This document shows, in pieces, positions 25,045-63,560 of a stretch of DNA of 64,000 nucleotides (within the stretch, counting starts at the first letter, position 1; the number at the start of each line of letters is the position of its first letter). The notes beneath the pieces were generated by a model that saw nothing but the letters and a program-made list of their open reading frames with translations, ran no database searches and was not told the origin of the DNA. The translations under genes were made by a program, and so were the position numbers. Source of the stretch: a virus (taxonomy: Duplodnaviria; Heunggongvirae; Uroviricota; Caudoviricetes); IMG/VR virus record IMGVR_UViG_3300044618_002782, positions 64,001-128,000 of that record; one strand, given 5' to 3'.

Positions 25045-26856
25045 ATGGCAGACTCGCAAAAAAACAGTAAAGGCGGCTGGCGCAAGTACTTCAAAGTAGC
25101 CAACGTAGGCGGAGAACTCAGTCCTCTCAGCGGCAAAGGTTCTGATGGCTTGCCTGGATACGGGCGTCAAGATGGACGTGATCCCTTGCGCGGCCATGCT
25201 GATGTGGTTTATCGCAACTATGCAAGTCGTTTGCCCGAAGTGTATTCTGGTCACCCAAATCGTATCGAACGTTATAATCAATACGAAAACATGGACAGTG
25301 ACAGTGAAATCAATGCTTGTCTGGACATTTTGGCAGAGTTTTGTACTCAAACCACCAACGGCGAAGCAGTACCGTTTCAAGTAAACTATTCTGACAAGCC
25401 CACAGCCCACGAAATTGAAATTATTAAAAAACAATTGCAGCAATGGGTCAAGTTGAATAAACTGGATCAACGCCTGTTTCGTATTTTCCGCAACACACTC
25501 AAGTACGGAGATCAAGTGTTTGTGCGTGATCCTGAAACATTTGAAATGTACTGGGTTGACATGACCAAAGTTGCTCGAGTGATCGTAAACGAAAGCGAAG
25601 GCAAACAGCCTGAGCAGTATGTGATTCGTGACATCAATCCCAACTTTCAAAATTTAAGCATTGCTGTAAAAACTACCACTGATTTTCAATCTACACCACC
25701 GTCGGGTGCGTATGTAGCACCTTTCAACTATACAGCACCCAACGCCGGTGCTGGCGGCCAAGGCAGCGGCGGCAGTAGATTTTCAGCAGCCATGAACGAA
25801 ACTGTAGTAGATGCTAAACACGTGATTCATCTAGGACTAAGCGAAGGTTTAGACTTTTACTGGCCGTTTAGTATGAGTGTGTTGGAAACAATTTACCGAG
25901 TGTTCAAGCAGAAAGAACTGCTGGAAGATGCAGTGTTGATTTATCGTGTGAGTCGTGCACCTGAACGTAGAATTTTTAAAATTGACGTAGGCAACATGCC
26001 CAGTCACATGGCTATGGCCTTTGTGGAACGTGTCAAAAACGAAATACATCAGCGCAGAATTCCCAGTCACACCGGTGGCAGCAGCGGTCAAAACATTATG
26101 GACAGCAGCTATAATCCACTCAGCATCAACGAAGACTATTACTTTCCACAAACTGCAGATGGCCGAGGTAGCAGTGTTGAAACCTTGCCAGGCGGTAGTA
26201 ATCTAGGCGAGATTGATGACTTAAAGTATTTCAACAACAAGATGTGCCGTGGTTTGCGTGTGCCCAGTAGTTATTTGCCAACTGGGCCTGACGATTCAGA
26301 TCGCCCTATGAATGACGGACGAGTAGGAACTGCATTAATTCAAGAGTATCGTTTTAATCAGTATTGCGAACGTTTACAACGACTAATCATCAACAAACTA
26401 GATGACGAATTCAAGATGTTTATGCGCTGGAGAGGCTTTAACATAGACAGCAGTCTGTTTAGCATTGCATTTAATCCACCGCAGAACTTTGCCAGCTATA
26501 GAGAAGCAGAACTGGACACCACCCGTGTTTCTACGTTCCAAGCTCTAGAGCAAATTCCTTATATGAGCAAGCGTTTCTTGCTCAAACGTTACTTAGGGTT
26601 AACCGAAGAAGAAATTCAGGAAAACGAAACGTTATGGAATGAAGAAAGAACAGATGCTGAGTTGCCACCCACTAGTGGTCAGGATCTGCGTGGTGTTGGA
26701 GTGACCCCAGCTGACTTCGAGGCTGATATTACCACCGGTGAAGAAATGAATACCATGGGTGCTCCAGGATCAGAAGCAACTGGTGGTGCTCCTGCACCAG
26801 GAAGTCAGCCAGGAGCAGCAGTGGCTCCCGGTGCAACAACTCCAGCTCCGGGCTAA
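25045..26856 (+). CDS. gp20: Portal vertex protein
   Basis: LLEDAVLIYRVSRAPERRIFKIDVGNMP, EDYYFPQTADGRGSSVETLPGG, YFNNKMCRGLRVPSSYL. Confidence 0.95.
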   Translation: MADSQKNSKGGWRKYFKVANVGGELSPLSGKGSDGLPGYGRQDGRDPLRGHADVVYRNYASRLPEVYSGHPNRIERYNQYENMDSDSEINACLDILAEFCTQTTNGEAVPFQVNYSDKPTAHEIEIIKKQLQQWVKLNKLDQRLFRIFRNTLKYGDQVFVRDPETFEMYWVDMTKVARVIVNESEGKQPEQYVIRDINPNFQNLSIAVKTTTDFQSTPPSGAYVAPFNYTAPNAGAGGQGSGGSRFSAAMNETVVDAKHVIHLGLSEGLDFYWPFSMSVLETIYRVFKQKELLEDAVLIYRVSRAPERRIFKIDVGNMPSHMAMAFVERVKNEIHQRRIPSHTGGSSGQNIMDSSYNPLSINEDYYFPQTADGRGSSVETLPGGSNLGEIDDLKYFNNKMCRGLRVPSSYLPTGPDDSDRPMNDGRVGTALIQEYRFNQYCERLQRLIINKLDDEFKMFMRWRGFNIDSSLFSIAFNPPQNFASYREAELDTTRVSTFQALEQIPYMSKRFLLKRYLGLTEEEIQENETLWNEERTDAELPPTSGQDLRGVGVTPADFEADITTGEEMNTMGAPGSEATGGAPAPGSQPGAAVAPGATTPAPG

Positions 26857-26864
26857 ATATCATT

Positions 26865-27083
26865 ATGATACTGACAGAATTATATCAACGCTCGCCTGAA
26901 GCTTACCAAGACGTAGCACAAGACAACACTCAGCCCAGTCTGGGTGCATTGCGCAAGACCAAGCTGACTCTGCGTCAAATCAACAAGCTGCGTAGAATGA
27001 ACGACGTTAGGTCGTACGAATTCAAAGAAAAATTAAAAAAAGTCAAACAGCAGTATGCGCCTCCGGCACAGCCCATGGTCTAG
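26865..27083 (+). CDS. Small basic head-associated protein (gp67/gp68-like position)
   Basis: 72 aa ORF with its own TAAATA, between the portal and prohead core genes. Confidence 0.5.
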   Translation: MILTELYQRSPEAYQDVAQDNTQPSLGALRKTKLTLRQINKLRRMNDVRSYEFKEKLKKVKQQYAPPAQPMV

Positions 27084-27113
27084 CAATTTTTTAAAATACT
27101 AAGAAACATTATA

Positions 27114-27158
27114 AAAAGGCATAAAATATACCTGTTATCTGGTATGTTTATGCCTTTT
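27114..27158. repeat. 18-bp inverted repeat just upstream of a late promoter
   Basis: aaaaggcataa-a-atatacc / ggtatgt-ttatgcctttt with an 8-nt loop; TAAATA at 27163-27168. Confidence 0.7.
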
Positions 27159-27198
27159 GGTGTAAATATACAACAGAGCCATTACATCGGAGGTCCTC

Positions 27199-27963
27199 AT
27201 GAATAAGTTTGAACAACTCATTGAATACGTAATCAATGACGACGAAGCCAAAGCACGTGAACTGTTTCACGACATCGTAGTTGAAAAAAGTCGTGCCATC
27301 TACGAAGAAATGATGCAGGAAGAAGAAGAACAAATTGAAGAAGACATGGACGAAGAACTCGACGAAGAAGTTGAGGAAGTTGAAGAAGGCATGGGCGGCG
27401 ATCAAGCCGGCGACCTGATTGACGATATCGAAGTAGAAGAAGAAGGCATTTCCATGGAAGGCGATGACGACATGGACAGCGAAGACCACCACGATGACAT
27501 GGGTGGCGACGAAGAATTAGAAGATCGTGTGGTTGATCTGGAAGACAAACTGGACGAACTCATGGCTGAATTTGAATCTCTCATGGGCGGTGATGACATG
27601 GGCGGTGACGAAGAAATGGACGTTGAAGTCAGCGATGAATTTGACACTCCCGACATGGACAGCGAAGAAGTTGTTGACGACGAACTCGAAACAGAAGGCA
27701 TGTACGAAAACGTCAGTTTGAAGGCTGTATCAAAGCCAACACACGGCGACAACGGTGCCAATACAAAAAGCCCAGTAGCTGCTAACAGCGGTGCTAAGGG
27801 CATGGCTGCCAAGCCAGTTCGCGCAGGCGGCGACGGCGGCAACGGACGTCCTGCTCCTACAGCCAAAGACATGGGCAGTACAACACAGCCCAACGTAAAA
27901 CCTGCTCCCAAGCCACACCTGGCTCAGGCCGCAGGTGTCAATACTAAATCTGTAACCAACTAA
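27199..27963 (+). CDS. Acidic prohead core protein (gp67-like)
   Basis: Very Asp/Glu-rich with many (L/V/M)-x-E sites; strong SD GGAGG; sits between portal and protease. Confidence 0.6.
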   Translation: MNKFEQLIEYVINDDEAKARELFHDIVVEKSRAIYEEMMQEEEEQIEEDMDEELDEEVEEVEEGMGGDQAGDLIDDIEVEEEGISMEGDDDMDSEDHHDDMGGDEELEDRVVDLEDKLDELMAEFESLMGGDDMGGDEEMDVEVSDEFDTPDMDSEEVVDDELETEGMYENVSLKAVSKPTHGDNGANTKSPVAANSGAKGMAAKPVRAGGDGGNGRPAPTAKDMGSTTQPNVKPAPKPHLAQAAGVNTKSVTN

Positions 27964-27975
27964 GGAACCAGGTAA

Positions 27976-28599
27976 ATGGCTCTTTACCTTAGAGAAAACT
28001 TGACTTTCGACGCTGCCCGCATGGTTGTGGAAGGCGCCGAAGGCAAGGATCTTTACATGAAAGGTATTTGCATTCAAGGTGGTGTCAAAAACGCCAATGA
28101 GCGTGTGTACCCAGTGAGCGAAATTGAGCGAGCTGTTGGTACCCTTATGGAACAGATCAAGGCTGGCAGTTCAGTTCTAGGCGAACTGGATCACCCAGAT
28201 GATTTAAAAATTAACTTGGACCGCGTTTGTATCAACATGATAGAAATGTGGATGGACGGGCCCAACGGTTTTGGCAAAATGAAAATATTGCCAACACCCA
28301 TGGGAAATCTCGTCCGCACACTGCTGGAAAGCGGTGTGAAATTGGGAGTTTCGAGCCGAGGTAGCGGTAACGTTAACGAAGCGAACGGACATGTCAGTGA
28401 CTTTGAAATAGTCACTGTGGATGTGGTTGCCCAACCATCAGCGCCTAATGCTTATCCAAAAGCCATCTACGAAGGCTTGTTGAATATGCGCCACGGGCAT
28501 CGCCTGCTAGAAATGTCACGCGAAGCTGGGTCGGACAACAAGGTACAGAGATTTTTGAAAGAGGAATTAAAACGCCTTATCAAAGATCTCAAAATCTAG
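27976..28599 (+). CDS. gp21: Prohead protease
   Basis: KNANERVYP, LGELDHP, KLGVSSRGSG, DFEIVTVDVVAQPSAPNAY. Confidence 0.93.
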   Translation: MALYLRENLTFDAARMVVEGAEGKDLYMKGICIQGGVKNANERVYPVSEIERAVGTLMEQIKAGSSVLGELDHPDDLKINLDRVCINMIEMWMDGPNGFGKMKILPTPMGNLVRTLLESGVKLGVSSRGSGNVNEANGHVSDFEIVTVDVVAQPSAPNAYPKAIYEGLLNMRHGHRLLEMSREAGSDNKVQRFLKEELKRLIKDLKI

Positions 28600-28608
28600 G
28601 AGAAATAG

Positions 28609-29697
28609 ATGTTTGATGCTATTAAACCACTGCTAGATAGCGGACTCATTAACGAGGACGTGGGACAAGAACTCAACGAAGCTTGGGAATCTAAACTCAC
28701 AGAAGCTCGCGAACAGTTACGTGCAGAACTCCGCGAAGAGTTTGCACAACGCTACGAGCATGACAAGACAGTAATGGTTGAAGCCCTAGATCGCATGGTA
28801 ACAGAAGGTCTTGCACAAGAGATCCAAGGCATTGCTGCTGAAAAGCAACAACTAGCCGAAGATCGTGTCAAGTTCCAAGCCAAAATGAAAGAAAGTTCTG
28901 TAAAGTTCAACGACTTTATGGTTTCCAAATTGGCTGAAGAAATTGGCGAACTGCGCAAAGACCGCCGTGTTCACACCGAAGGTTTCCAGAAATTGGAACG
29001 CTTTGTTGTTGAAGCACTGGCCCAAGAAATCATGGAATTCCAACAAGACAAGCGTGATGTCGTAGAGACAAAAGTGCGTCTGGTTCGTGAAGCCCGTGGT
29101 AAATTGGAAGCTCTCAAGGCTAGATTCGTTACAGAATCTGCTGCCAAAATGAGCCGCGCTGTTGCTGGGCATCTTAAAGCTGAAATGAGTCAGTTGCACG
29201 AAGACATCAAGGTTGCTCGCGAGAACAATTTTGGACGTCGTATTTTTGAAGCGTATGCTGCAGAGTTTGGTTCAACATATCTCAACGAGAATGCTGAAAT
29301 TCGAAAACTCAGCCGTGTAGTTGCTCACAAAAATCAGCAACTGGAAGAAGCAACACGAGTCGTCGAGGCAAAACAACGCCTGGTCGATTCCAAAGAGAAA
29401 GAAATTCGTATTATCAAGGAATCCACACAGCGCGAAAGCACCATGGAAGAATTGCTTGCACCTCTCAACGAAGAGAAGCAGGAAGTAATGCGCAATTTGT
29501 TAGAAAGCGTTCAAACAAGTCGTTTGAAAGGCGCTTTCGAGAAGTATCTACCAGCTGTGCTGAACGATGCAAGCAGCAAGAACCGCAAGGTCATTGCTGA
29601 AAGTGTTCGCGAAGTAACTGGTGATAAAACCGTCAAGGCCGCAAAAGAAGAAGACCGTTCCAACGTGATCGACATCAAGCGCCTGGCAGGTCTTTAA
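28609..29697 (+). CDS. gp22: Prohead core scaffolding protein
   Basis: Coiled-coil, Glu/Lys-rich, between gp21 and gp23; ends IDIKRLAGL. Confidence 0.8.
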   Translation: MFDAIKPLLDSGLINEDVGQELNEAWESKLTEAREQLRAELREEFAQRYEHDKTVMVEALDRMVTEGLAQEIQGIAAEKQQLAEDRVKFQAKMKESSVKFNDFMVSKLAEEIGELRKDRRVHTEGFQKLERFVVEALAQEIMEFQQDKRDVVETKVRLVREARGKLEALKARFVTESAAKMSRAVAGHLKAEMSQLHEDIKVARENNFGRRIFEAYAAEFGSTYLNENAEIRKLSRVVAHKNQQLEEATRVVEAKQRLVDSKEKEIRIIKESTQRESTMEELLAPLNEEKQEVMRNLLESVQTSRLKGAFEKYLPAVLNDASSKNRKVIAESVREVTGDKTVKAAKEEDRSNVIDIKRLAGL

Positions 29698-29712
29698 TTA
29701 GAGGAGACTTAA

Positions 29713-30930
29713 ATGTCACAAGAACTGTTAGAAAGCCGTTGGGACGAGACCAAAGAAGCCCTTATGGAAGGCCTCAAAGGTAGCCGTCGTAACACAATGG
29801 GCGTTATCTTAGAAAACACCCGCAAGTACCTAAAAGAAAACGCAAGTGCAGGTTCAACTGTATCAGGCAACATCGCCACACTAAACCGTGTGATTCTGCC
29901 TGTTATCCGTCGAGTCATGCCAACTGTTATCGCTAACGAGTTGGTTGGCGTTCAGCCAATGACTGGTCCTGTTGGCCAAATTCACACATTGCGTGTGCGT
30001 TATGCCAGCACAATGACAGACCAAACAGCAGCAGCAACATCAGTTGTAGCTGGTGAAGAAGCACTGTCACCTTTCAAGATCGCTGTTGCTTACTCAGCAG
30101 GCGCTCGTGGTGCTGACAACGCTGCAACAACACAAACTGCTGCACAAGGTTATTCTGGTGCACAGACAGCAACACTTGAAGGCAATGGCGGACGTCAAAT
30201 CTCTGTACAGATCCTCAAGCAAGCTGTTGAAGCTAAAACACGTAAGCTACAAGCTCGTTGGACTTTTGAAGCTGCTCAAGACGCACAAGCAATGCATGGT
30301 ATCGACGTAGAAGCCGAAATCATGGCAGCTTTGGCTCAAGAAATTACAGCTGAAATTGACCAAGAGATCCTGTTGAGCCTGCGTTCGTTGGCCACAACTG
30401 AGTTTACATACAACCAAGCTACTGTTTCTGGTACTGCTACATTCGTTGGTGACGAACATGCTGCTCTAGCTGTTCTGATCAACCGTGTTGCTAACCTGAT
30501 CGCACAACGCACACGTCGTGGTGCAGGTAACTGGGCTGTTGTGTCACCTGCTAGCTTGACTGTTCTTCAGTCAGCAACAACATCAGCATTTGCACGTACC
30601 ACAGAAGGTACATTCGAAGCACCTACAAACACCAAGTTTGTTGGTACATTGAACGGCGCAATGCGTGTGTTCGTTGACAGCTACGCTAGTGATAGCACAC
30701 CTGTGTTAGTTGGTTATAAGGGTTCGAGCGAAGCTGATGCAGCAGCGTTCTATTGCCCATATATCCCCCTAATGAGCAGCGGTGTTGTTCTGGATCCGTC
30801 AACATTCGAACCAGTCGTAAGCTTTATGACGAGATACGGATATATCGAATTGACAAACACAGCATCAAGCTTCGGCAATGCTGGAGATTATGTCGGCGAG
30901 ATAGCCGTTTCGAATTTGAGCTTCAGCTAA
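29713..30930 (+). CDS. gp23: Major capsid protein
   Basis: ANELVGVQPMTGPVGQI, KTRKLQARWTFEAAQDAQAMHGIDVEAE, EITAEIDQEIL, FYCPYIPL, FMTRYG. Confidence 0.97.
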   Translation: MSQELLESRWDETKEALMEGLKGSRRNTMGVILENTRKYLKENASAGSTVSGNIATLNRVILPVIRRVMPTVIANELVGVQPMTGPVGQIHTLRVRYASTMTDQTAAATSVVAGEEALSPFKIAVAYSAGARGADNAATTQTAAQGYSGAQTATLEGNGGRQISVQILKQAVEAKTRKLQARWTFEAAQDAQAMHGIDVEAEIMAALAQEITAEIDQEILLSLRSLATTEFTYNQATVSGTATFVGDEHAALAVLINRVANLIAQRTRRGAGNWAVVSPASLTVLQSATTSAFARTTEGTFEAPTNTKFVGTLNGAMRVFVDSYASDSTPVLVGYKGSSEADAAAFYCPYIPLMSSGVVLDPSTFEPVVSFMTRYGYIELTNTASSFGNAGDYVGEIAVSNLSFS

Positions 30931-31025: not shown

Positions 31026-31766
31026 ATGAACAAATACGAAAAATGGTATAATCAAATCACTGTTCGCGGTCAAACCCGTGTCACAGATCAACGTACAGAA
31101 TCGCACCACATTATACCTAAATGCTTAGGTGGCAGTGACGATGCTAGTAATCTAACCAATATCACATTACGAGAACATTTTATATGTCATTGGTTGCTGA
31201 CAAAAATACATCAAGGTAAGCACCGTCATCAGCTACTTAAAGCATTATGGATGATGAGAGCCGAGAATCAAAATCAAAAACGATACAATACTAAAATAAC
31301 ATCAAGAGTATATGCCACTCTCAAAGAAGAATATAGCATGTTGCAAAGTCAAAGAGTAACAGGTGAAAACAATCCTATGTGGGGGAAAACACAAAGTGAA
31401 AAAGCTCGAGCACTAATTAGCCAAAAGAATACAGGGAAAAAGTTAACAGAAGAACAAATAGCAAAACAAATAGCTGCTCAGACTGGCCGTAAGAGAAAAA
31501 CATTTTCAGATGAATGGCTTGATAATATGTCAAAGAATCATAAAAGTAAACAGCCAGATTTTGATGGATCGTTAAAGGAAGAAACTAAGAAAAAAATTGG
31601 CGACAAGATTCGAGGACGCAAGCAAACAGATGAAGAAAAAGCAAGGCGCAGTGCTGCAAACTTGGGAAAAGTTAGACTTAAAAAACTGTGCCCACATTGC
31701 GATCAACAGATAGCTGTAAACACCTATCCCAGATTCCACGGAGACCTTTGCCGCCACCGTACATAA
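31026..31766 (+). mobile_element. Freestanding HNH homing endonuclease gene with NUMOD3 repeats
   Basis: ESHHIIPKCLGGSDDASNLTNITLREHFICHWLL; GENNPMWGKTQSE (NUMOD3); C-terminal CPHC..HGDLC. Confidence 0.88.
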
Positions 31767-31773
31767 ATACAGT

Positions 31774-32856
31774 ATGGCCAATTCACCCCCACCCTACAGC
31801 AACATAACCGGCATTAGTCGTGCCGCAATGAAAGACAATGCCCAGATCACCTTGGCCAACTACGACGGCAACGCCAGACCTGGCGAACTGGTGGTGGATC
31901 AGACCACCACTGTGTTGTACATAGGCAATGCAGCAGGTGAACTCACAGCAGTGGCCACACCCGGCGGCGCAACAACCTGGGCCTTGCTGGACGACAAAAC
32001 AGGTGCTGCAGGTCCCACTATCATAGCCCTGGGGCAAAATGCTGGATTTGATGGCCAGGACTCGGGAGCAGTAGCCATTGGATCAACTGCTGGACAAGGT
32101 GGCCAACAGTCAGCAGCCGTTGCAATTGGTCAAAATTCTGGTGGCAACACCACTCAAGGCTCAGGTGCTGTGGCCATTGGTATCTCAACTGGATTTGATG
32201 CTCAAGGCCAGTACGGAGTGGCCATTGGTGCTTTTACTGCAATGACTTTGCAAGGTGCTCGATCAGTGGCCATTGGACTCAGCAGCGGCCAAAGCAGCCA
32301 AGGTGCCAATTCTGTGGCCATGGGTCAATATGCCGGCAACGAAACACAAGGTGTCAGTTCTGTGGCCATTGGCAACAATGCTGGTTATACTGGTCAAGGC
32401 ATCAGTTCTGTGGCCATTGGCGACGGTGCTGGCGAGACCAATCAAGGCAATCAAAGTGTTGCCATTGGACAAAATGCCGGTGCTGCTCAGGGATCAACAG
32501 CAGTGGCCATTGGACAAAATGCTGGTGGCGGCGTTGCCTTGCAAAATGATGACGCAGTGGCCATTGGGCACGGTGCAGGCGAAAATGGTCAAGGCACACA
32601 GGCCATTGCTCATGGATTATATGCTGGACAGGTCACACAAGGTATCAACGCAGTGGCCATTGGTGCATACGCCGGGCAAACTGCGCAGGGCAACAATTCA
32701 ATCATTATGAATGCCACAGGTGCTGCCCTAAATCAAACCACAGCCAACACATTCACTGTGAAACCTGTGCGCAACGGCGGATCCAGTGGATTACCTGCAG
32801 GATTTTTTCAAATGGCATACAATCCCACAACAGGTGAGATTGTTTACTACACCTGA
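31774..32856 (+). CDS. Fibre/adhesin-like virion protein with YadA-head-like (Hep/Hag) AIG repeats
   Basis: About 16 repeats of x(A/S)VAIGxxAGxxxQ with a roughly 14-15 aa period. The N-terminal 60 aa are shared with the ORF at 63560. Confidence 0.65.
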   Translation: MANSPPPYSNITGISRAAMKDNAQITLANYDGNARPGELVVDQTTTVLYIGNAAGELTAVATPGGATTWALLDDKTGAAGPTIIALGQNAGFDGQDSGAVAIGSTAGQGGQQSAAVAIGQNSGGNTTQGSGAVAIGISTGFDAQGQYGVAIGAFTAMTLQGARSVAIGLSSGQSSQGANSVAMGQYAGNETQGVSSVAIGNNAGYTGQGISSVAIGDGAGETNQGNQSVAIGQNAGAAQGSTAVAIGQNAGGGVALQNDDAVAIGHGAGENGQGTQAIAHGLYAGQVTQGINAVAIGAYAGQTAQGNNSIIMNATGAALNQTTANTFTVKPVRNGGSSGLPAGFFQMAYNPTTGEIVYYT

Positions 32857-32876: not shown

Positions 32877-33524
32877 ATGAAAATCAATCAAATTGTCAAC
32901 GAGGAAAGTCACATAGATCCAGATATCATTGCTGCTCTCAAGAAAAAAGGTTACAAACCAAAAGGTCGTGGGGATGATGCAGTTGCATTTGTAGAACCCG
33001 GCACAGGACAAATTCTCAAAATATTTGGAACTGGCGACGGAGCAGATGTTACAAAAAAAGCTGGCCAGCAACAGACCAATTTTAATGAACATCAAAAGAT
33101 GGCAATTTACTGGGCCAAGTATTGCGCCGCAAATTCTGGTAATAAATTTCTACCAAAGTTTTCAGGGATTGAGAGCTTTCATTGGGGCAGTGCTGTGTAT
33201 CTACAGATTCGTCAAGAAAGATTATATGACTTGGAAAAAGATCAAAAAAGAACGATAGAATCCATGGCCATGCAGGCCCGGCGCAAAGTTCCGTTTGACA
33301 CCATGGATCAAAAGTACACCAATAATCATTATGCTGACACCAGAGCAGCATGGAAACAAATAAAAGACAAAATAGACAACAAAGATCTCAGATTGTTCTA
33401 TCAGACCATGATAGATATTGCCAATATCGGGGATCAAAAAAACTGGGCCTACGATCTTCACGGTGACAACATAATGATGCGTCGAGATGGCACACCAGTT
33501 ATACTTGATCCCTGGGCTCTGTAA
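32877..33524 (+). CDS. Protein-kinase-like (APH/RIO-type) protein
   Basis: Gly-rich KGRGDDAVAF, ILKIF, LQIRQERL hinge, catalytic loop DLHGDNIM, VILDP. Confidence 0.7.
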   Translation: MKINQIVNEESHIDPDIIAALKKKGYKPKGRGDDAVAFVEPGTGQILKIFGTGDGADVTKKAGQQQTNFNEHQKMAIYWAKYCAANSGNKFLPKFSGIESFHWGSAVYLQIRQERLYDLEKDQKRTIESMAMQARRKVPFDTMDQKYTNNHYADTRAAWKQIKDKIDNKDLRLFYQTMIDIANIGDQKNWAYDLHGDNIMMRRDGTPVILDPWAL

Positions 33525-33572
33525 ACAAGCAGTATCAGTGATAAATAAACAAACCGATCAAGGATCTTTCCA

Positions 33573-35336
33573 ATGACTATCAAACCTGTGCTAGTGCCCG
33601 ACCATAACGCAGCTGACCTGCGTGACCTAATGAACCGATTCAGCACAGCAGCCCAATCAGCCACGCCGGCTGCACAAGCCAACCGAATAAGACAACAGCT
33701 AACTGAAAGCGCAGAACCGGGTGTGGCGGAAGCTCGTCCAGATGTCATGCGACATCGGGGTGATAAGACTGTGAAAATAGTCAAACGTGCGGGTAAACCC
33801 ATTGGCGAGATTGGTACGGATGCAGAAGCCAGTCCCGGCAATGGTCAGTACTATGTCAAACTGTACGACGGCAGCTACGATGCTGTGGGATACGACACAG
33901 CTGAAGAAGCCTTAGCAGAATTAAAGGCAGCCATTAAACAAGGTGTGGCGGAAGGTGGGCGTCTGGACATGAGCAGCCCAGAAGAGAAAGCAGCCCGTAA
34001 AGCATACATCAAGGCACACGGACATCCCCCACCGCTGACTCCAGACAGCGTGGTGGCCAAATATAACCCTGAGAATGATAAAAAAGTCAGAGACTATTAT
34101 CTCAGAAGAAAAGGAATTCCACAAGACAAGCTGGACAAGATGAAGGAAGATGGTGTGGCTGAAGGCGAAAAGCCAGAGTATCAAAAACTATTAAAACAAA
34201 TAAAACAAAACGCTAAGAATGACCCAAATAGAATTCCTAGAGGTTATGAACTGACTGACCACGGCATGCTAGTAAAAAAACATAAGACCGAAAAGTCAAA
34301 CGATGGTGTAGGCGGATTAGGGGAAGGCATGGTGGAAGGGACATTTCAAGATGATGGCAAGATGGATTGGAATGCATGGAAACAGAAAGCAAAAAAACAC
34401 GGTGCAGTAAAGTTTACTGATACTGATAATAAGACTATTGCTTATGATAAAGATGGCAAAGTAGTCAGTTCTATAACCTGGTCGCAAAAGAAGTCAGGTA
34501 TGGCGGAAGCAACTGGTGACACATCATTTGATTCAATGATGGGAAACATAGTCAAAGGTGCTAGATACAAGGGTGCCGCAGCTGATCAACGTGCCGATGC
34601 AGCATACAGTGGCATGATGAACAATATTACTAAAAATGCTGCTGATGTTGCAAAACCATCTGCTGACTCTAAGTTTGAACAAGTGTATAGCGCAGTAGAG
34701 AGAATACTTTTATCTAATAATGTTCATTGGGATATAGATGACGACATTTCGGACGCTCTTAAAAAGTTAAAAATCAAAGCATCGGACGCTCTCATGCAAA
34801 AACTTGAGAGAGAACTTATTAATCGTGTATCGGATGCGCTACAATATTATGATGATGGTGATTTAGCAGAGTCAGGTGTGGCGGAAGGATCAGAAAACAA
34901 TCCAGTGGTCAATGCCATCACACGCAGAATTATGATGCAACGTTCAGACTTGTTGAGCAAGTACGGTCCAGAAAAGGTTGGGCAAGCTGTCGATGAAGTT
35001 GCTGACTTTGTGGGCAATGTGGAAGAAATTGGATCCAGCGATGTATCAGGTTGGGTTCGTCATGTGGAACAAATGTTGGGCAACATGGAGCAAGATGTAG
35101 CAGAAGAAGCAGCAGCGCCAACATTCAAGCCCGGAGATCGTGTGATGTATGCTGGTAAATTTGCCACTGTTGTTGCACAAGATGGTGATGCGTATGGTAT
35201 TCGTGTTGACGCACAACCAGGAACAATGAAGGTTCTGGCTAGCCAAATCAAGAAACCCAGCTACGACGAAAGTGTTGCCGAGTCAATTGACCCTATAGAA
35301 CAGCTTCGTGCAGATATTCGACGTTTTGCACTGTAA
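33573..35336 (+). CDS. Modular polyprotein-like protein with GVAE-type spacers (putative capsid cargo)
   Basis: Eight in-frame (G/D/S)-(V/M)-(A/V)-E sites separate unrelated-looking 55-125 aa blocks; see findings. Confidence 0.6.
   Translation: MTIKPVLVPDHNAADLRDLMNRFSTAAQSATPAAQANRIRQQLTESAEPGVAEARPDVMRHRGDKTVKIVKRAGKPIGEIGTDAEASPGNGQYYVKLYDGSYDAVGYDTAEEALAELKAAIKQGVAEGGRLDMSSPEEKAARKAYIKAHGHPPPLTPDSVVAKYNPENDKKVRDYYLRRKGIPQDKLDKMKEDGVAEGEKPEYQKLLKQIKQNAKNDPNRIPRGYELTDHGMLVKKHKTEKSNDGVGGLGEGMVEGTFQDDGKMDWNAWKQKAKKHGAVKFTDTDNKTIAYDKDGKVVSSITWSQKKSGMAEATGDTSFDSMMGNIVKGARYKGAAADQRADAAYSGMMNNITKNAADVAKPSADSKFEQVYSAVERILLSNNVHWDIDDDISDALKKLKIKASDALMQKLERELINRVSDALQYYDDGDLAESGVAEGSENNPVVNAITRRIMMQRSDLLSKYGPEKVGQAVDEVADFVGNVEEIGSSDVSGWVRHVEQMLGNMEQDVAEEAAAPTFKPGDRVMYAGKFATVVAQDGDAYGIRVDAQPGTMKVLASQIKKPSYDESVAESIDPIEQLRADIRRFAL
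33720..34887 (+). repeat. Dispersed 13-nt direct repeat GGTGTGGCGGAAG
   Basis: Exact copies at 33720, 33942 and 34875; one-mismatch copies at 34152 and 34497; degenerate copy at 34326; all in the same reading frame. Confidence 0.85.
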
Positions 35337-35343
35337 GAAAACG

Positions 35344-35362
35344 GCCCCGCAAGGGGCTTTTT
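35344..35362 (+). terminator. Rho-independent terminator
   Basis: gcccc-GCAA-ggggc followed by TTTTT. Confidence 0.85.
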
Positions 35363-35368
35363 GTTCTC

Positions 35369-58307: not shown

Positions 58308-58919
58308 ATGAAAACATTTGCACAATACCTGACAGAAAGCGAAAAAACCTTTGATTATCGTATCAAAATCTGCGGAGATGTTGGGGCTGACCTCTTAAAG
58401 ATGTTTAAGGAAAAACTTAAAAAGTTTGATCCTGTAAAGATTTCAGATCCAAAGACCACACCTGTACAGGCCAAGCCTGTAGACTTTCCCGGACAAACTA
58501 ATCAACGAGTGACCATGATTGATGGCAGTTTTAGATACCCAGCAACGCCTCCGCAGATTCAACAGATGGCAGAGCTTTGCGGAGTACCTGCTACTGATAT
58601 TTGTATCAATGACTTGCATTGGTCAGAAGGAATGGATCAAGAGTTACTGGGCATTGAAGAAGAAAATTCTCCTTCCTTGCTGGAAAAAGATTACCCAGCT
58701 AACTCAGCAGAACAGAACAAGCTCAAGAAAGAATACGCCGACAGCAATCAGCAGATAGTAAAAAACTCAGCTGAAAAAGCCACATGGACTGTAGCTGGCG
58801 GCCGTACTCCACCAGCTGTCACAACAAACGATTTGCCACAGGGCGTCAAGAGTCCTATGTCAACAATAAAACGTCCACCACGTCCAGCCACTGGATTTAA
58901 ATCTCAAGGAAAAAAGTAA
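58308..58919 (+). CDS. Putative internal head protein with a capsid-targeting-like leader
   Basis: Starts MKTFAQYLTE (T4 IPII/IPIII leader is MKTYQEFIAE); late promoter at 58284-58289. Confidence 0.5.
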   Translation: MKTFAQYLTESEKTFDYRIKICGDVGADLLKMFKEKLKKFDPVKISDPKTTPVQAKPVDFPGQTNQRVTMIDGSFRYPATPPQIQQMAELCGVPATDICINDLHWSEGMDQELLGIEEENSPSLLEKDYPANSAEQNKLKKEYADSNQQIVKNSAEKATWTVAGGRTPPAVTTNDLPQGVKSPMSTIKRPPRPATGFKSQGKK

Positions 58920-61711
58920 TGGATATCTATCAAATCATGGCTCGACTTGACGCCATTGGCTCAAAGAAAAATCTGACAGAAAGTCAGGATATGATGCAAC
59001 CTGTTGCTGAAGGTCGCTTCAAAGAATTAGATATAATTCTGCAGGATTTTCCTGAGGATGTGGAAGAATTTAAACGCAGTGGCGATTTAGGCAGTAGATT
59101 TTATGAGGCCCTGGTTAACCATTATCTGGATTCGGGCGAAATGCCTTATGGCGTAGCTAAAGCACGCACTGGCGATCCGTATGACTGGGTTGTAAATCGG
59201 TTGGCTAGCGAGTTGGGTCTGGACGAAGCATCTGCAAGAAACCGCGGCGATGTTGCTGAAGCCAAGACTTCTAAGCCTGACTTTTTAGATCTTGACAAAG
59301 ATGGCGACAAGAAAGAGCCAATGAAAAAGGCAGTTGCTGATAAGAAAAAAGGTGCAGTTAAAGAAAGCGAACAGAATATGAGTCGCGCTGCCAAAGGTTA
59401 TGAAAAATATGGCAAACAAGGTATGCAGGCATTAGCCAAGGCTGGTAAAGAAGGTAAAAGTCTTGATCCCGTCAGAAAAAAATACGACAGGTATGACGAA
59501 TCACTTAGTCAAGATGACTTTGACCAAGCCGCAATTGCCCAGGGCAAACGTGGACGTGATGCTCGTGACAATCCTTCAAAAGCAGTAGCGGCAGCTAAAC
59601 GTAGTCCAGCAGCTCAAGATGCACGTGCCAAACTTGACAAAGTACGTCAATCTGAAATCAAAGTCAAAGAGTCAGCAAAACCAGACTTCTTGGACATGGA
59701 CCAAGATGGCAACAAGAAAGAGTCAATGAAGAAAGCTGTCCAAGACAAGAATCGTGTTAAGAAAGTCGACGAAGCCGGCAAAAATCTATTCCCAGGCACA
59801 CCTGAGTACGAATTGCGTTTTGGCAAAGACGATGCTTCTAGTGCGTTTGATAAGAAAAAGATTTCAACAGGTACAGTGTATAGCCGCAAGCATCACGAAG
59901 AGCCTGAAGCAGCCGACAACGATGATACACCAAAGAAAAAAGGCCGCCCAGTTGGCGCCAAACGACGCCTAGGAGCCAAAGGACCCAGTGTTAACAGTTT
60001 ACTGTTAAAAGGCAAAGGCGGTTTGAAAGAACACGATATCGATATTCAAGATAGAGGTGAATACGATCGCGAAGGCGATATGGCCTTGAATCAAGTGCAC
60101 CAAATTGCAGACGCTGCTCGAGAATTGCATGCTATTTTGGCATCAGACGATAATCTGCCGGAATGGGTACAAAGCAAGATCACCAAGGCCTTGGATTACA
60201 TTGACACAGCCAGAGATTATCTAGGTGCCGAAGGCGAAATGGATCGCGAAGAATTACCTGAAATTGCTCCTATCGTTGGGGCTCTTGCCGGTCGTGCATT
60301 GGCTGGAGCAGCTGGCGCAGGATCAACAGGACAAGCAATTGGGAGCCTAGCTGGAAGAGCAGTTGCAGGTGCAATGAACGGCAACGATGAAGTTGAAGAA
60401 GCTGGATATTCAGCCAAATCAGCTCGTGCAGGTAAAGACATTGGCAAGCCCGGCAAGAACTTTAACAAGATTGCCAAAGGTGCTGCTGAACGTTACGGCA
60501 GCAAGGCTGCTGGTGAACGTGTTGCCGGCGCAGTGTTAAACAAACTGCGTGCCAAGGAAGGCGTTGAAGAAGGACCCGACACCGGAATTGGATCTAAACT
60601 ACCAAAAAGCGACATCGAAACTTTTGGATTACAAAAAGGACGACCATACAAAATCAATCCTCCTCAAGATTTCAAACCAGGTGATAGAAAACGTGCTGTT
60701 CAACAACTTATTCCCACTCAAGACAAGAAAGATCACATTCGCAGTCGATTGGGTAAACATGTAGCTCCTGTATTGCCCGAACAAGATGTCGAAGAAGAAT
60801 CTACTAACAAAAAAGATGTACCGTTTGACGGACCATATCGTAAAAAAGGCGATGACAAAGACCAATTCGGCAACAAGATCAAGCATGTTGCTCGTCATGC
60901 CGCACGCCAAGGTTTAGCAGACATGACCACAGCTGAACTCAAGGCTGAACTCAAGCGCAGAAGTCAAGTAGAAGAAGAGTCTACTGATACTCAAGACCAG
61001 CATGCAGAAAAGGCCGGCAAGAAAGTCACCAAAGATCTTGAGTACGACATGAAGCACAAGGGCAAAGACGATGCCAAGGCAGAAAAGGCCGGTAAGAAAG
61101 TCACCAAAGATATCGAGTATGACGACAAGAAAGACAAAGAAAAGAAAGTCGACGAAACCACAGTGTCGGGTTCAGTAGCTACAGGTGGCGATGCTCCTAA
61201 GAAAAGCAAAGGCGGAATGCAGTTTGGTCAAGGTGTCTACGAAGGCGCTATTGCAGAAAGTTTTGACAAGAAGCTGGGCGGAATACTCACCGAAGGCATG
61301 AGTGTCAATGTCAGCACAGACGATACAGGCAAAAAGAGTATCACGGTCAATGCCACAGATGCTGATGCTGATTCCTTGGGCAACATGCTGAAGATGGCAG
61401 GTTTGTTCTCTAGCGAAGGCTACAGCAGAACATGCGAAAGTTGCCACGGCATACACGAAGCAGGTGCTTGTCAAGCAGAGCAAGTTGCTGAAGAATTGGC
61501 CAACAGCCCTGACGAAGTGTATGCTGACAAAGACTACATGACACAAACACTATCGGGTGGATTAAATGGTCCCAAGACAACAGGTCAAACAACAGGGCCT
61601 GTTGTGAATCGTCAAGATAGTCGTCAAGGTGTAATGGCTGAAGCTGAACGAGTTGTTGAGCAATCAGAATCACGCTTGTGGAATCTTTACAAGCAATACG
61701 AGAAAAAATGA
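58919..61711 (+). CDS. Large modular charged polyprotein-like internal head protein
   Basis: 930 aa with about 18 (V/L)-x-E sites bounding short blocks and two PDFLD(L/M)D(K/Q)DG EF-hand-like repeats. Confidence 0.55.
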   Translation: MDIYQIMARLDAIGSKKNLTESQDMMQPVAEGRFKELDIILQDFPEDVEEFKRSGDLGSRFYEALVNHYLDSGEMPYGVAKARTGDPYDWVVNRLASELGLDEASARNRGDVAEAKTSKPDFLDLDKDGDKKEPMKKAVADKKKGAVKESEQNMSRAAKGYEKYGKQGMQALAKAGKEGKSLDPVRKKYDRYDESLSQDDFDQAAIAQGKRGRDARDNPSKAVAAAKRSPAAQDARAKLDKVRQSEIKVKESAKPDFLDMDQDGNKKESMKKAVQDKNRVKKVDEAGKNLFPGTPEYELRFGKDDASSAFDKKKISTGTVYSRKHHEEPEAADNDDTPKKKGRPVGAKRRLGAKGPSVNSLLLKGKGGLKEHDIDIQDRGEYDREGDMALNQVHQIADAARELHAILASDDNLPEWVQSKITKALDYIDTARDYLGAEGEMDREELPEIAPIVGALAGRALAGAAGAGSTGQAIGSLAGRAVAGAMNGNDEVEEAGYSAKSARAGKDIGKPGKNFNKIAKGAAERYGSKAAGERVAGAVLNKLRAKEGVEEGPDTGIGSKLPKSDIETFGLQKGRPYKINPPQDFKPGDRKRAVQQLIPTQDKKDHIRSRLGKHVAPVLPEQDVEEESTNKKDVPFDGPYRKKGDDKDQFGNKIKHVARHAARQGLADMTTAELKAELKRRSQVEEESTDTQDQHAEKAGKKVTKDLEYDMKHKGKDDAKAEKAGKKVTKDIEYDDKKDKEKKVDETTVSGSVATGGDAPKKSKGGMQFGQGVYEGAIAESFDKKLGGILTEGMSVNVSTDDTGKKSITVNATDADADSLGNMLKMAGLFSSEGYSRTCESCHGIHEAGACQAEQVAEELANSPDEVYADKDYMTQTLSGGLNGPKTTGQTTGPVVNRQDSRQGVMAEAERVVEQSESRLWNLYKQYEKK

Positions 61712-62469
61712 AGAAACTAGCAGATTATATCGCTGAATCCGAATCCCCAGTCGCTGGGGATCGATTTGCTATCAATATTCGAGAAGAATGCCTGATTGAA
61801 TCGCATGTGGTTGATGTGGTTGAAGATGGCATTGTGATCGAAGGCGACGAACGCTTGTTGGCCCTGTTGGAAGAATACGGCTTTCAGCTGGAAACTGTTC
61901 GTCGATACGGTGCTGTGGGTTCCAGTGCAGGAATGGGATTTACCACAGCCGAATCAGATGTCAACGATGCTGGTAGCGACAACAGCGACCGAGAGTTACG
62001 CTTGATCCGCAGCCGTGCCGGACTGGCCGAAACAGCACCCGATCAGCCCGAAACTGATGCTGACCATAACGATCCCTTGGCAGCCAAGGCAGCAAACCTT
62101 GCACCAGTGGGTGCCATTGGATCAGAACTTGATGAAGATGGAGTTGATCCAGTAAACGCACAAGGACAAGATGCAGAAGATCTGCATGGCCAAGCCACAT
62201 CAAGTGTTGCCGGTGCTGTAGACGAAGCTGAATACCAAGGTCGTGAAGTCAAGTTAGGCAAGCCTTTTTTAACACCAGGCGGTCCAAAGAAACGTAGCGT
62301 TTATGTAAAAAATCCTAAAGGCAACATAGTCAAGGTCAACTTTGGCGATCCTAACATGCGTATCAAAAAGTCAAATCCGGCACGTAGGAAAAACTTCAGG
62401 GCCAGACATAACTGTGCCAATCCGGGTCCTCGCACATCGGCTCGTTATTGGTCTTGTAGAGCTTGGTAA
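61708..62469 (+). CDS. Putative internal head protein with a basic C-terminal Cys/His domain
   Basis: ATG 61708 overlaps the upstream TGA; starts MKKLADYIAE; ends KVNFGDPNM...FRARHNC...SARYWSCRAW. Confidence 0.55.
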   Translation: MKKLADYIAESESPVAGDRFAINIREECLIESHVVDVVEDGIVIEGDERLLALLEEYGFQLETVRRYGAVGSSAGMGFTTAESDVNDAGSDNSDRELRLIRSRAGLAETAPDQPETDADHNDPLAAKAANLAPVGAIGSELDEDGVDPVNAQGQDAEDLHGQATSSVAGAVDEAEYQGREVKLGKPFLTPGGPKKRSVYVKNPKGNIVKVNFGDPNMRIKKSNPARRKNFRARHNCANPGPRTSARYWSCRAW

Positions 62470-62775: not shown

Positions 62776-63159
62776 ATGCGAGCCAGAGAATTTGTTTCTG
62801 CTAGAATAACCGAAACAGCAGATGCCAAGATTTCCCGCAGGCTGCAAGCGGCCACTCGCGGCCTAAATGTCTATAGTGATGCTGAACGCTGGAACGGTGA
62901 TTATGTATTGAGTCGTTTGGGCCAAGCAGTGGCCTCAACAGATGGTACGTTTGTACCTGATATTGATATGAAATCGTGGATAGGTAAAAACAAAAGTACT
63001 CATCCATACACTCCAGAAGAACAAGCCATGCTGAAAATGGCGTACCGGGCCATTGGTGCTGACTATACGGATCTCAACGGCGGCAACATGAACAGTGAAG
63101 AAATGTCAGAAGTCAATCGAGTTAGCCCAGTGCAGGGATTTAAAGGTTATCCCAGATGA
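62776..63159 (+). CDS. Putative internal head protein, paralog A
   Basis: MRAREF... ending SPVQGFKGYPR*. Confidence 0.55.
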   Translation: MRAREFVSARITETADAKISRRLQAATRGLNVYSDAERWNGDYVLSRLGQAVASTDGTFVPDIDMKSWIGKNKSTHPYTPEEQAMLKMAYRAIGADYTDLNGGNMNSEEMSEVNRVSPVQGFKGYPR

Positions 63160-63560
63160 GAGCCAGAGAATTTATTCGCGAACAACGAGATTTACCCCCT
63201 GAAAGCAAAGGACCCATGCGTTACACTTATGTGATCCCAGGGTTGAGTGCTTCCGACCCTTATGGAAACTATCGTATGGGTGTGGCAATGGCACGTGCCA
63301 GAAGCGATTATGCCAACGAACTCAGCAGTGAAAACGAAGGAATTGATCCCTACAAGCCTGAATGGTCTGCTGAAACTGCGTTTGGTGAACATGCTGTTGT
63401 TGTGGGATCTAGCCCGCACATTGCACAATTGATTGACCGTGCTTTGGCAATGACTGGAACACCCGGCGGCAAGCGATTAGTCAGCAGTGCTGACAGTGAC
63501 GAGCCTGCTTTTGTAGCAAACAAAAGTCCTGTTCGGGCCTTTAAAGGATACCCGAGATAA
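63156..63560 (+). CDS. Putative internal head protein, paralog B
   Basis: MRAREF... ending SPVRAFKGYPR*. Confidence 0.55.
   Translation: MRAREFIREQRDLPPESKGPMRYTYVIPGLSASDPYGNYRMGVAMARARSDYANELSSENEGIDPYKPEWSAETAFGEHAVVVGSSPHIAQLIDRALAMTGTPGGKRLVSSADSDEPAFVANKSPVRAFKGYPR

Follow-up and report, generated by a model that had tools for sequence, protein, structure and literature searches.

A T4-like lake-phage gene organized as a chain of small modules joined by a repeated in-frame DNA word

Introduction

The prohead protease of bacteriophage T4, gp21, cuts after the Glu of L/I-X-E (PMC9026906). It chops the scaffold protein gp22 at many sites, removes a 10-amino-acid (aa) targeting leader from the internal proteins (PMC9026906, PMC5694885), and trims Alt at both ends (PMC9026906). 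This work describes a cassette-array polyprotein gene (33573..35336, + strand; 587 aa) in a 64,000-nucleotide (nt) stretch of viral DNA, positions 64,001 to 128,000 of IMG/VR record IMGVR_UViG_3300044618_002782. This stretch, referred to here as the window, belongs to a 160,607-bp contig from an uncultured T4-like phage from lake water. Eight in-frame joints of the pattern x-[V/M]-[A/V]-E divide the open reading frame (ORF) into a 53-aa leader, seven modules of 57 to 126 aa, and a 17-aa tail. As with T4 IPI, IPII, IPIII, and Alt, the gene is accompanied by a T4-type head module with a gp21 homolog and carries a hydrophobic-X-Glu motif. Its predicted products are likewise small and partly basic, the locus is hypervariable among close relatives, and the leader MKTTDFITE| of a sibling array is close to the T4 targeting leader. 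Processing at both ends, as in Alt (PMC9026906), is what we propose for the leader and the tail. In T4, however, each internal protein has a separate gene with its own leader, whereas here a single leader would load from 2 to >10 unrelated modules separated by repeated internal sites. In addition, the joints of the array are conserved at the DNA level, and its own leader belongs to a different type.

Polyvalent proteins (Iyer et al. 2017, PMC5512222) also place unrelated domains in one polypeptide of variable architecture, and they have been proposed to be packaged in the capsid, delivered with the DNA, and processed into units (PMC5512222). Unlike the array, they consist of recognizable enzymatic and other conflict-related domains, two to fifteen per protein, and have been proposed to be processed by an embedded zincin-like metallopeptidase (MPTase) of their own; a repeated junction word and prohead-protease sites are not described for them (PMC5512222). 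The array has tiny modules of unknown family and a uniform junction. Pfam and PHROGs searches detected no polyvalent-type conflict domains in the window array, only a few modules with known domains occur among 59 homologs, and neither the array nor the scanned homologs showed a peptidase domain.

In T4-like phages, promoter early stem-loop (PeSL) cassettes provide a second point of comparison: short conserved DNA motifs border insertions, deletions, and replacements and have been proposed as recombination points for module swaps between coinfecting phages (PMC2839356, PMC4122927). PeSLs are intergenic regulatory elements, an early promoter plus a stem-loop, that shuffle whole genes (PMC2839356, PMC4122927), whereas the junction word described here lies in frame within coding sequence, shuffles protein modules, and encodes a functional-looking peptide. 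T-even adhesins exchange segments in frame at or near short conserved motifs (the His boxes of gp37 and the glycine-rich motifs of gp38), giving chimeric proteins, but the segments belong to one fold and keep a fixed order and number (PMC3157838). In the array, by contrast, both the number and the order of autonomous domains change, and the motif resembles a protease site. Among bacterial polymorphic toxins, a short conserved peptide and DNA motif (VENN in CdiA, PxxxxDPxGL in Rhs) marks the point at which cargo is swapped, and the Rhs motif is also a cleavage site. These toxins carry one terminal toxin per protein and rely on self-cleavage or none, rather than forming a multicassette chain for a capsid protease.

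A literature search found no description of a system like the array, and no system compared here combines a multimodule chain, a uniform prohead-protease-type site, and an in-frame junction frozen at its silent sites. We read the array as T4-like head-cargo proteins that appear to be organized, and to evolve, in an undescribed way. On balance, we consider it moderately probable that the gene encodes a late polyprotein whose modules are swapped at the junction word, cut apart by a gp21-type protease, and delivered like T4 internal proteins.

Results and Discussion

Architecture of the array

The initial annotation of this DNA, made by a model from the letters alone, had placed joints at 33720, 33942, 34152, 34326, 34497, 34875, 35094, and 35271. 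All eight are present and in frame, and the blocks that they delimit are, as it had stated, of 74, 70, 58, 57, 126, 73, and 59 codons and mutually dissimilar, with no significant similarity among the seven modules. The features of the array are given below (pI, isoelectric point; AF2, AlphaFold2; L and P numbers denote related loci and array proteins).

33573..33731, + strand: N-terminal leader, 53 aa, MTIKPVLVPDH...QQLTE|SAEPGVAE|; candidate targeting propeptide
33720..33732, + strand: junction word 1, GGTGTGGCGGAAG, GVAE|A; the identity run with L017 ends at 33732
33732..33953, + strand: module M1, 74 aa, four strands plus helix; the most promiscuous module
33942..33954, + strand: junction word 2, GGTGTGGCGGAAG, GVAE|G; identity with L015, L017, and L010 stops at 33955-33957
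33954..34163, + strand: module M2, 70 aa, pI 9.2; 73-99% identical in the P0036, P0024, and P0007 arrays, with other neighbors
34152..34164, + strand: junction word 3, GGTGTGGCTGAAG, GVAE|G; one base (GCT) off the canonical word
34164..34337, + strand: module M3, 58 aa, pI 9.0, ending in GMVE at 34326-34337; P0052 matches residues 198-255 exactly, at 83% identity
34338..34508, + strand: module M4, 57 aa, pI 9.3, ending in GMAE; word GGTATGGCGGAAG at 34497-34509
34509..34886, + strand: module M5, 126 aa, acidic; 97.6% nucleotide identity to L015 exactly over 34506-34887, with unrelated flanks
34875..34887, + strand: junction word GGTGTGGCGGAAG, GVAE|G, between M5 and M6
34887..35105, + strand: module M6, 73 aa, helical bundle in the AF2 model, ending in DVAE (35094-35105)
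35106..35282, + strand: module M7, 59 aa, small SH3-like beta barrel in the AF2 model, ending in SVAE (35271-35282)
35283..35333, + strand: C-terminal tail, 17 aa, SIDPIEQLRADIRRFAL, predicted helix; kept across arrays with different interiors, putative role in loading

The leader is constant while the interior varies, and its start, MxIKPVLVPDH, occurs in 51 of 243 related proteins. Of the seven modules, three have a basic pI (9.0-9.3) and three are acidic. A claimed difference in composition between blocks stood for total GC content, which ranges from 0.39 to 0.55, but third-position GC was not significantly heterogeneous (p = 0.13). Neither Pfam nor PHROGs gave a family match for the 587-aa protein. 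A tblastn search of 50,697 deposited phage genomes with the array protein also returned no match, and there is thus no cultured relative for comparison. Two other explanations of the joint motif, a 2A-like ribosome-skipping site and an intein, were rejected because the motif fits neither; internal repeats were rejected because the modules are mutually dissimilar. The end of the tail (...IDIKRLAGL) may resemble the C terminus of gp22 (...LRADIRRFAL), a likeness that was not used as evidence.

Module turnover among related phages

The array genes are mosaic, and their breakpoints lie at the junction word. A search of 5.8 billion proteins retrieved 596 partial homologs of 335-1018 aa, for which the best local alignment covers 11-30% of the query at 60-99% identity. 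Alignments end on module borders (query residues 55-128, 122-206, 198-255, 309-440, and 435-512). The module turnover that had been predicted was borne out, in that homologs are not colinear and single modules recur, 60-99% identical, in other sets and orders with breakpoints at the junction. For instance, M5 stands before M2 in P0007 and is followed by M1 in P0012, and P0056 and P0057 begin the chain with M6, which lies mid-chain elsewhere, and end it with M1. In an all-against-all comparison, 171 protein high-scoring segment pair (HSP) ends fell exactly on a junction Glu, compared to 26 for random positions. At the nucleotide level, 57% of internal HSP ends lay within -6 to +12 nt of a joint, versus 6% for random positions.

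Breakpoints were located by comparing the window with syntenic loci (L015, L016, L017, L010, and L012) drawn from independent sources (JGI, ENA, Logan, and IMG/VR). In these relatives, gp21, gp22, and gp23 are followed by a homing endonuclease, up to two variable genes, the array, and conserved genes of 201, 200, and 194 aa, in that order. Their gp23 is 98.5-100% identical to that of the window, and in L015-L017 the 201-aa gene that follows the array is at 76-92% identity. The arrays, of 781, 555, 684, and 387 aa, have the same leader and tail with different modules. When the window is compared with L015, nucleotide identity extends across the kinase-like gene, leader, and M1 as far as 33955, returns only for M5 (34506-34887, 97.6%), and resumes at 35296. 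The breaks with L015 sit on the words at 33942-33954, 34497-34509, and 34875-34887. The same module end, KLDKMKEDGVAE|, continues as GEKPEY, TTGDPRFD, or AGPGDINR (in the window, L004, and L006), and identical module starts are also preceded by different module ends. In L006, M4 is preceded by DVAE| and ends in GVAE|, after which a different module follows.

M1 is found at any position in 305 cluster representatives of 56-1384 aa, with at least 64 upstream and at least 52 downstream neighbor types, and it remains 72-88% identical across dozens of contexts. Its core also occurs as free-standing genes of 66 and 73 aa in unrelated genomic contexts (L013 5971-6171 and L014 5051-5272), and these copies have no junction motif at either end. 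A counterpart of M7, the SH3-like module, is tandemly duplicated in L016 7001-8668, with no canonical junction between the copies. The arrays at L015 7001-9346 and L017 7001-9055 include a module with hydrophobic Ala/Gly-rich stretches (GWKxKxAGAALAGAAALG...) that look membrane-spanning or signal-like, which is unexpected for capsid cargo.

The window also encodes a second polyprotein-like ORF of 930 aa (58919-61711), in which many V-x-E joints (PVAE|G, DVAE|A, and GVEE|G) are written in ordinary codons. Parts of it are found inside the word-bearing arrays of L008, L011, and L004 (aa 546-626 at 73% and aa 151-198 at 73%), indicating that different array genes exchange modules.

Beside capsid genes that are 98.5-100% identical, the interval from gp23 to the array is hyperplastic. 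It always contains a homing endonuclease: an HNH/NUMOD3 enzyme in the window and a SegE-like GIY-YIG enzyme in L010, L012, and L015-L017. This neighbor could raise local recombination. The term "integron-like," used in the initial annotation, was an overstatement, as no dedicated recombinase or attC-like site was found, and near the locus there is no integrase and no nuclease other than homing endonucleases.

All of these data are from assemblies, and co-occurring strains have modules in common, a setting in which chimeric contigs might be joined at a short repeat. We regard such a metagenome assembly artifact as having a negligible chance of accounting for the pattern. At 13-18 nt, the word falls below the usual k-mer length of assemblers, the identical 587-aa protein is present on 15 contigs, and the loci from JGI, ENA, Logan, and IMG/VR are consistently syntenic. 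Moreover, the exact allele was recovered, at 74-99% of its sampled words, in 24 lake-water metagenome runs from 2020-2024. No joints inside the window allele were found in the contigs of four lake runs; these are contigs rather than reads, so that rare rearrangements are possible. Relatives in the same runs part from the allele at the words: in run X9, one contig matches M5 from 34496 on with an upstream context as in L001 and L002, and a contig of run X24 passes from the end of M6 through the junction word into unrelated sequence. Given that the allele was unchanged from 2020 to 2024, turnover looks like population-level homologous or microhomology exchange rather than programmed shuffling.

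Silent-site conservation of the junction word

The junction word is conserved at silent sites. As the initial annotation had noted, three joints are identical in DNA and keep the uncommon GCG codon: GGTGTGGCGGAAG stands at 33720, 33942, and 34875. The joints at 34152 (GCT) and 34497 (ATG) are each one base off, and that at 34326 is three bases off. The 12-mer GGTGTGGCGGAA was found nowhere else on either strand of the 160,607-bp contig (chance expectation, about 0.02), and the sole other GVAE peptide in the contig, in a giant structural protein, is written GGTGTTGCTGAA.

The predicted synonymous constraint on the repeat proved to be strong. Of 32 independent GVAE contexts across related phage contigs, 20 use GGTGTGGCGGAA, whereas codon usage alone would give about 0.3%. 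GCG supplies 5% of Ala codons and GTG 18% of Val codons in the array genes (4.7% and 25% genome-wide), compared to 23 of 36 Ala codons (p about 1e-21) and 24 of 34 Val codons (p about 3e-11) at the joints. The word can be summarized by the logo (C/G)AA GGT GTG GCG GAA GG(C/T), and the joint peptide by [Q/E/K/D]-G-[V/M/I]-[A/S/T]-E | [G/A]. Variant joints (DVAE, GVTE, GVSE, GMSE, and DIAE) keep the peptide pattern in ordinary codons. As read from the sequences, conservation is thus two-layered: the peptide pattern [G/D]-[V/M/I]-[A/S/T]-E at all joints and, at the canonical joints, a DNA word that is frozen as well. This frozen word is most simply explained as identity by descent, with crossovers recurring within it. 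A silent-site-frozen in-frame junction of this kind is a clear case of coding sequence shaped by recombination plus protein function.

The extreme codon bias, together with the homing-endonuclease gene that always lies between gp23 and the array, might instead suggest that the silent sites of the word serve another DNA or RNA function, such as a target for the neighboring nuclease or a translational pause, with recombination as a by-product. We judge this quite improbable, in that the word has no dyad symmetry or structural signal, joints with ordinary-codon variants appear equally functional, and the breakpoints coincide with the word, which identity by descent explains without an extra function. 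A stronger version of our reading, in which the word is a selected dual-purpose signal, is offered only tentatively. As DNA, it would be an in-frame crossover point at which a very abundant lake-phage clade redistributes small cargo modules among genomes and among several array genes; as peptide, it would be a prohead-protease site that frees each module inside the capsid. It would have one leader load a changeable, injected set of host-takeover or antidefense proteins, and the endonuclease might stimulate the exchange.

Candidate protease sites, predicted structures, and proposed mechanism

All eight joints have V or M at P3 and E at P1. The motif [VM][AV]E has a density of 1.36 per 100 aa in the array ORF and 1.10 per 100 aa in gp22, where it forms four sites, compared to 0.096 per 100 aa genome-wide (a 14x excess for the array). 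The junction pattern is also present in the 930-aa second polyprotein. Near the N terminus of gp21 itself, [IV]VE|G is conserved in the best 120 homologs, and YL[RK]E is a further conserved site. Leaders of the T4 capsid-targeting type (e.g., MKTTDFITE| and MKITQILSE|) were found on 40 of 243 related proteins, and the arrays that bear them include some that share M1, M2, M3, M5, or M6 with the window at 73-99% identity.

Two subregions of the array protein were modeled with AlphaFold (AF2), with confidence expressed as the predicted local distance difference test (pLDDT). The core of M1, comprising four strands plus a helix, had pLDDT values of 84-91. M6 was modeled as a helical bundle with a pLDDT of about 80 and junction residues of <50. 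The suggestion that the last block is SH3/KOW-like agrees with the M7 model, a small beta barrel with weak matches to SH3-like, PWWP, Tudor, and KOW-type folds. A Foldseek search of the PDB with the M1 model gave no match at E <= 0.001, and ESM Atlas look-ups returned only unnamed phage clusters. Every modeled joint had a pLDDT of <50 between confident domains, which suits an accessible protease site. A complex prediction for gp21 (residues 21-207) with a junction-bearing 47-mer scored 0.02, which is no answer and weighs neither way.

Taken together, the fit to L/I-X-E, the enrichment in gp22, the low-confidence linkers, a late-type promoter, and the leaders of sibling arrays are consistent with processing by gp21 and packaging of the array protein. 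In the mechanism that we propose, the conserved leader and tail would handle loading into the prohead, and the gp21-type protease would then cut after each junction Glu inside the prohead, in an apparently flexible linker. Cutting would free about seven proteins of 6-14 kDa, which would stay with the DNA and enter the next host, like T4 internal proteins. The word is the point at which related phages swap, gain, drop, and rearrange modules in frame.

Several points weigh against this proposal. Cutting, packaging, and injection of the array protein are all inferred. The array's own leader, MTIKPVLVPDH... (45-53 aa), is not of the T4 capsid-targeting type (MKTYQEFIAE), P3 is Val or Met here as opposed to Leu or Ile in the T4 consensus, and L/I/V-X-E is a loose motif. 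Selection against breakpoints within domains would by itself leave the surviving breakpoints at linkers. The stability of the allele from 2020 to 2024, with no internal joints, speaks against frequent shuffling within a lineage. Finally, the array modules have no recognizable function, and sibling arrays give few Pfam matches.

An alternative is an uncut, beads-on-a-string late protein, virion-associated or cytoplasmic, in which GVAEG forms flexible linkers and exchange is seen there only because recombinants fold. The placement of the joints in low-confidence linkers fits this alternative as well. Still, a hydrophobic residue two positions upstream of an invariant Glu is not something that a plain linker needs, yet this arrangement is present at every joint, decayed variants included. 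The motif is concentrated in gp22, a known type of substrate for the protease, T4-type cleavable targeting leaders occur on sibling arrays, and the free-standing M1 copies dispense with the motif at both ends. We therefore consider an uncut chain unlikely.

Module functions and significance

Modules of the 59 homologs match 23 PHROG families, nearly all without known function. Matches in sibling arrays include Zeta-toxin/AAA_33 kinase-like, methyltransferase-like, DUF6321, and weak SutA-like modules. Strong conservation of each module combined with rapid turnover of combinations in near-identical phages fits host-interaction cargo better than assembly filler. That the modules are such cargo is, in our view, suggested by this argument, which is not a test.

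The filler alternative grants cutting by the prohead protease but takes the pieces to be core- or scaffold-like or DNA-condensing peptides whose turnover is largely neutral. T4 offers a precedent, as gp22, gp67, and gp68 are cut at many sites and some of the peptides stay in the head (PMC5694885, PMC9026906). Three of the window's modules are small and basic, and Pfam and PHROGs recognize no effector domain in its array. Nevertheless, we rate this alternative as rather unlikely: modules are folded domains in the models, sibling arrays contain the enzyme-like kinase and methyltransferase modules, and M1 keeps its 72-88% identity while combinations turn over, which suggests selection on both module and combination.

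If the pieces are indeed cut out and delivered as host-directed cargo, the array would be a compact way to carry and rapidly reassort many small proteins under one targeting signal, extending the T4 internal-protein paradigm, in which every protein has a gene of its own, to chains of exchangeable modules. Hundreds of unannotated small families would become candidates for injected effectors (M1 by itself accounts for 305 clusters), and the array would offer a naturally evolved design for packing multiple cargo proteins into T4-like capsids.

Gene neighborhood and expression signals

The array gene lies in the head-gene region of the phage, downstream of a T4-type head cluster (gp20 portal, S77 protease, gp22-like protein, and gp23) that spans 25045-30930, with the prohead protease gene 5 kb upstream. 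The neighboring features are as follows.

25045-26856: T4-type portal (gp20)
27976-28599, + strand: Peptidase_S77 gp21-type prohead serine protease, Pfam E = 6e-27; presumed processing enzyme
28609-29697: gp22-like scaffold protein
29713-30930: gp23 major capsid protein
31026-31766: HNH/NUMOD3 homing endonuclease, between gp23 and the array
31774-32856: fiber-like protein, variable gene
32877-33524: kinase-like protein, variable gene
33540..33547, + strand: late-promoter-like motif GATAAATA, from a pattern search, 25 nt before the ATG; putative function
35343..35368, + strand: terminator-like hairpin (35343-35358) plus T run, the array's own, downstream

The motif GATAAATA resembles the T4 late-promoter consensus TATAAATA, and the same pattern search placed xATAAATA before neighboring genes at 31762, 32862, 35369, and 37321. 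Most likely, the array gene is expressed late.

Between the portal and protease genes, where the T4 core proteins gp67 and gp68 sit, the window encodes an extremely acidic 254-aa protein (27199-27963) that has no family match and contains runs of D/E-rich [IVLM]xE motifs. Leaders of the T4 capsid-targeting-like type (including MKTFAQYLTE, MKKLADYIAE, and MRAREF...TE) are found in the window on small late genes at 58308-58919, 61678-62469, and 62776-63560. The ORFs at 62776 and 63156 have the C-terminal end FKGYPR in common. A search with the prohead protease gave at least 8000 candidates with E <= 1e-10, of which the best 120 are all at least 83% identical; matches this numerous indicate that the phage clade is very abundant in public freshwater metagenomes.

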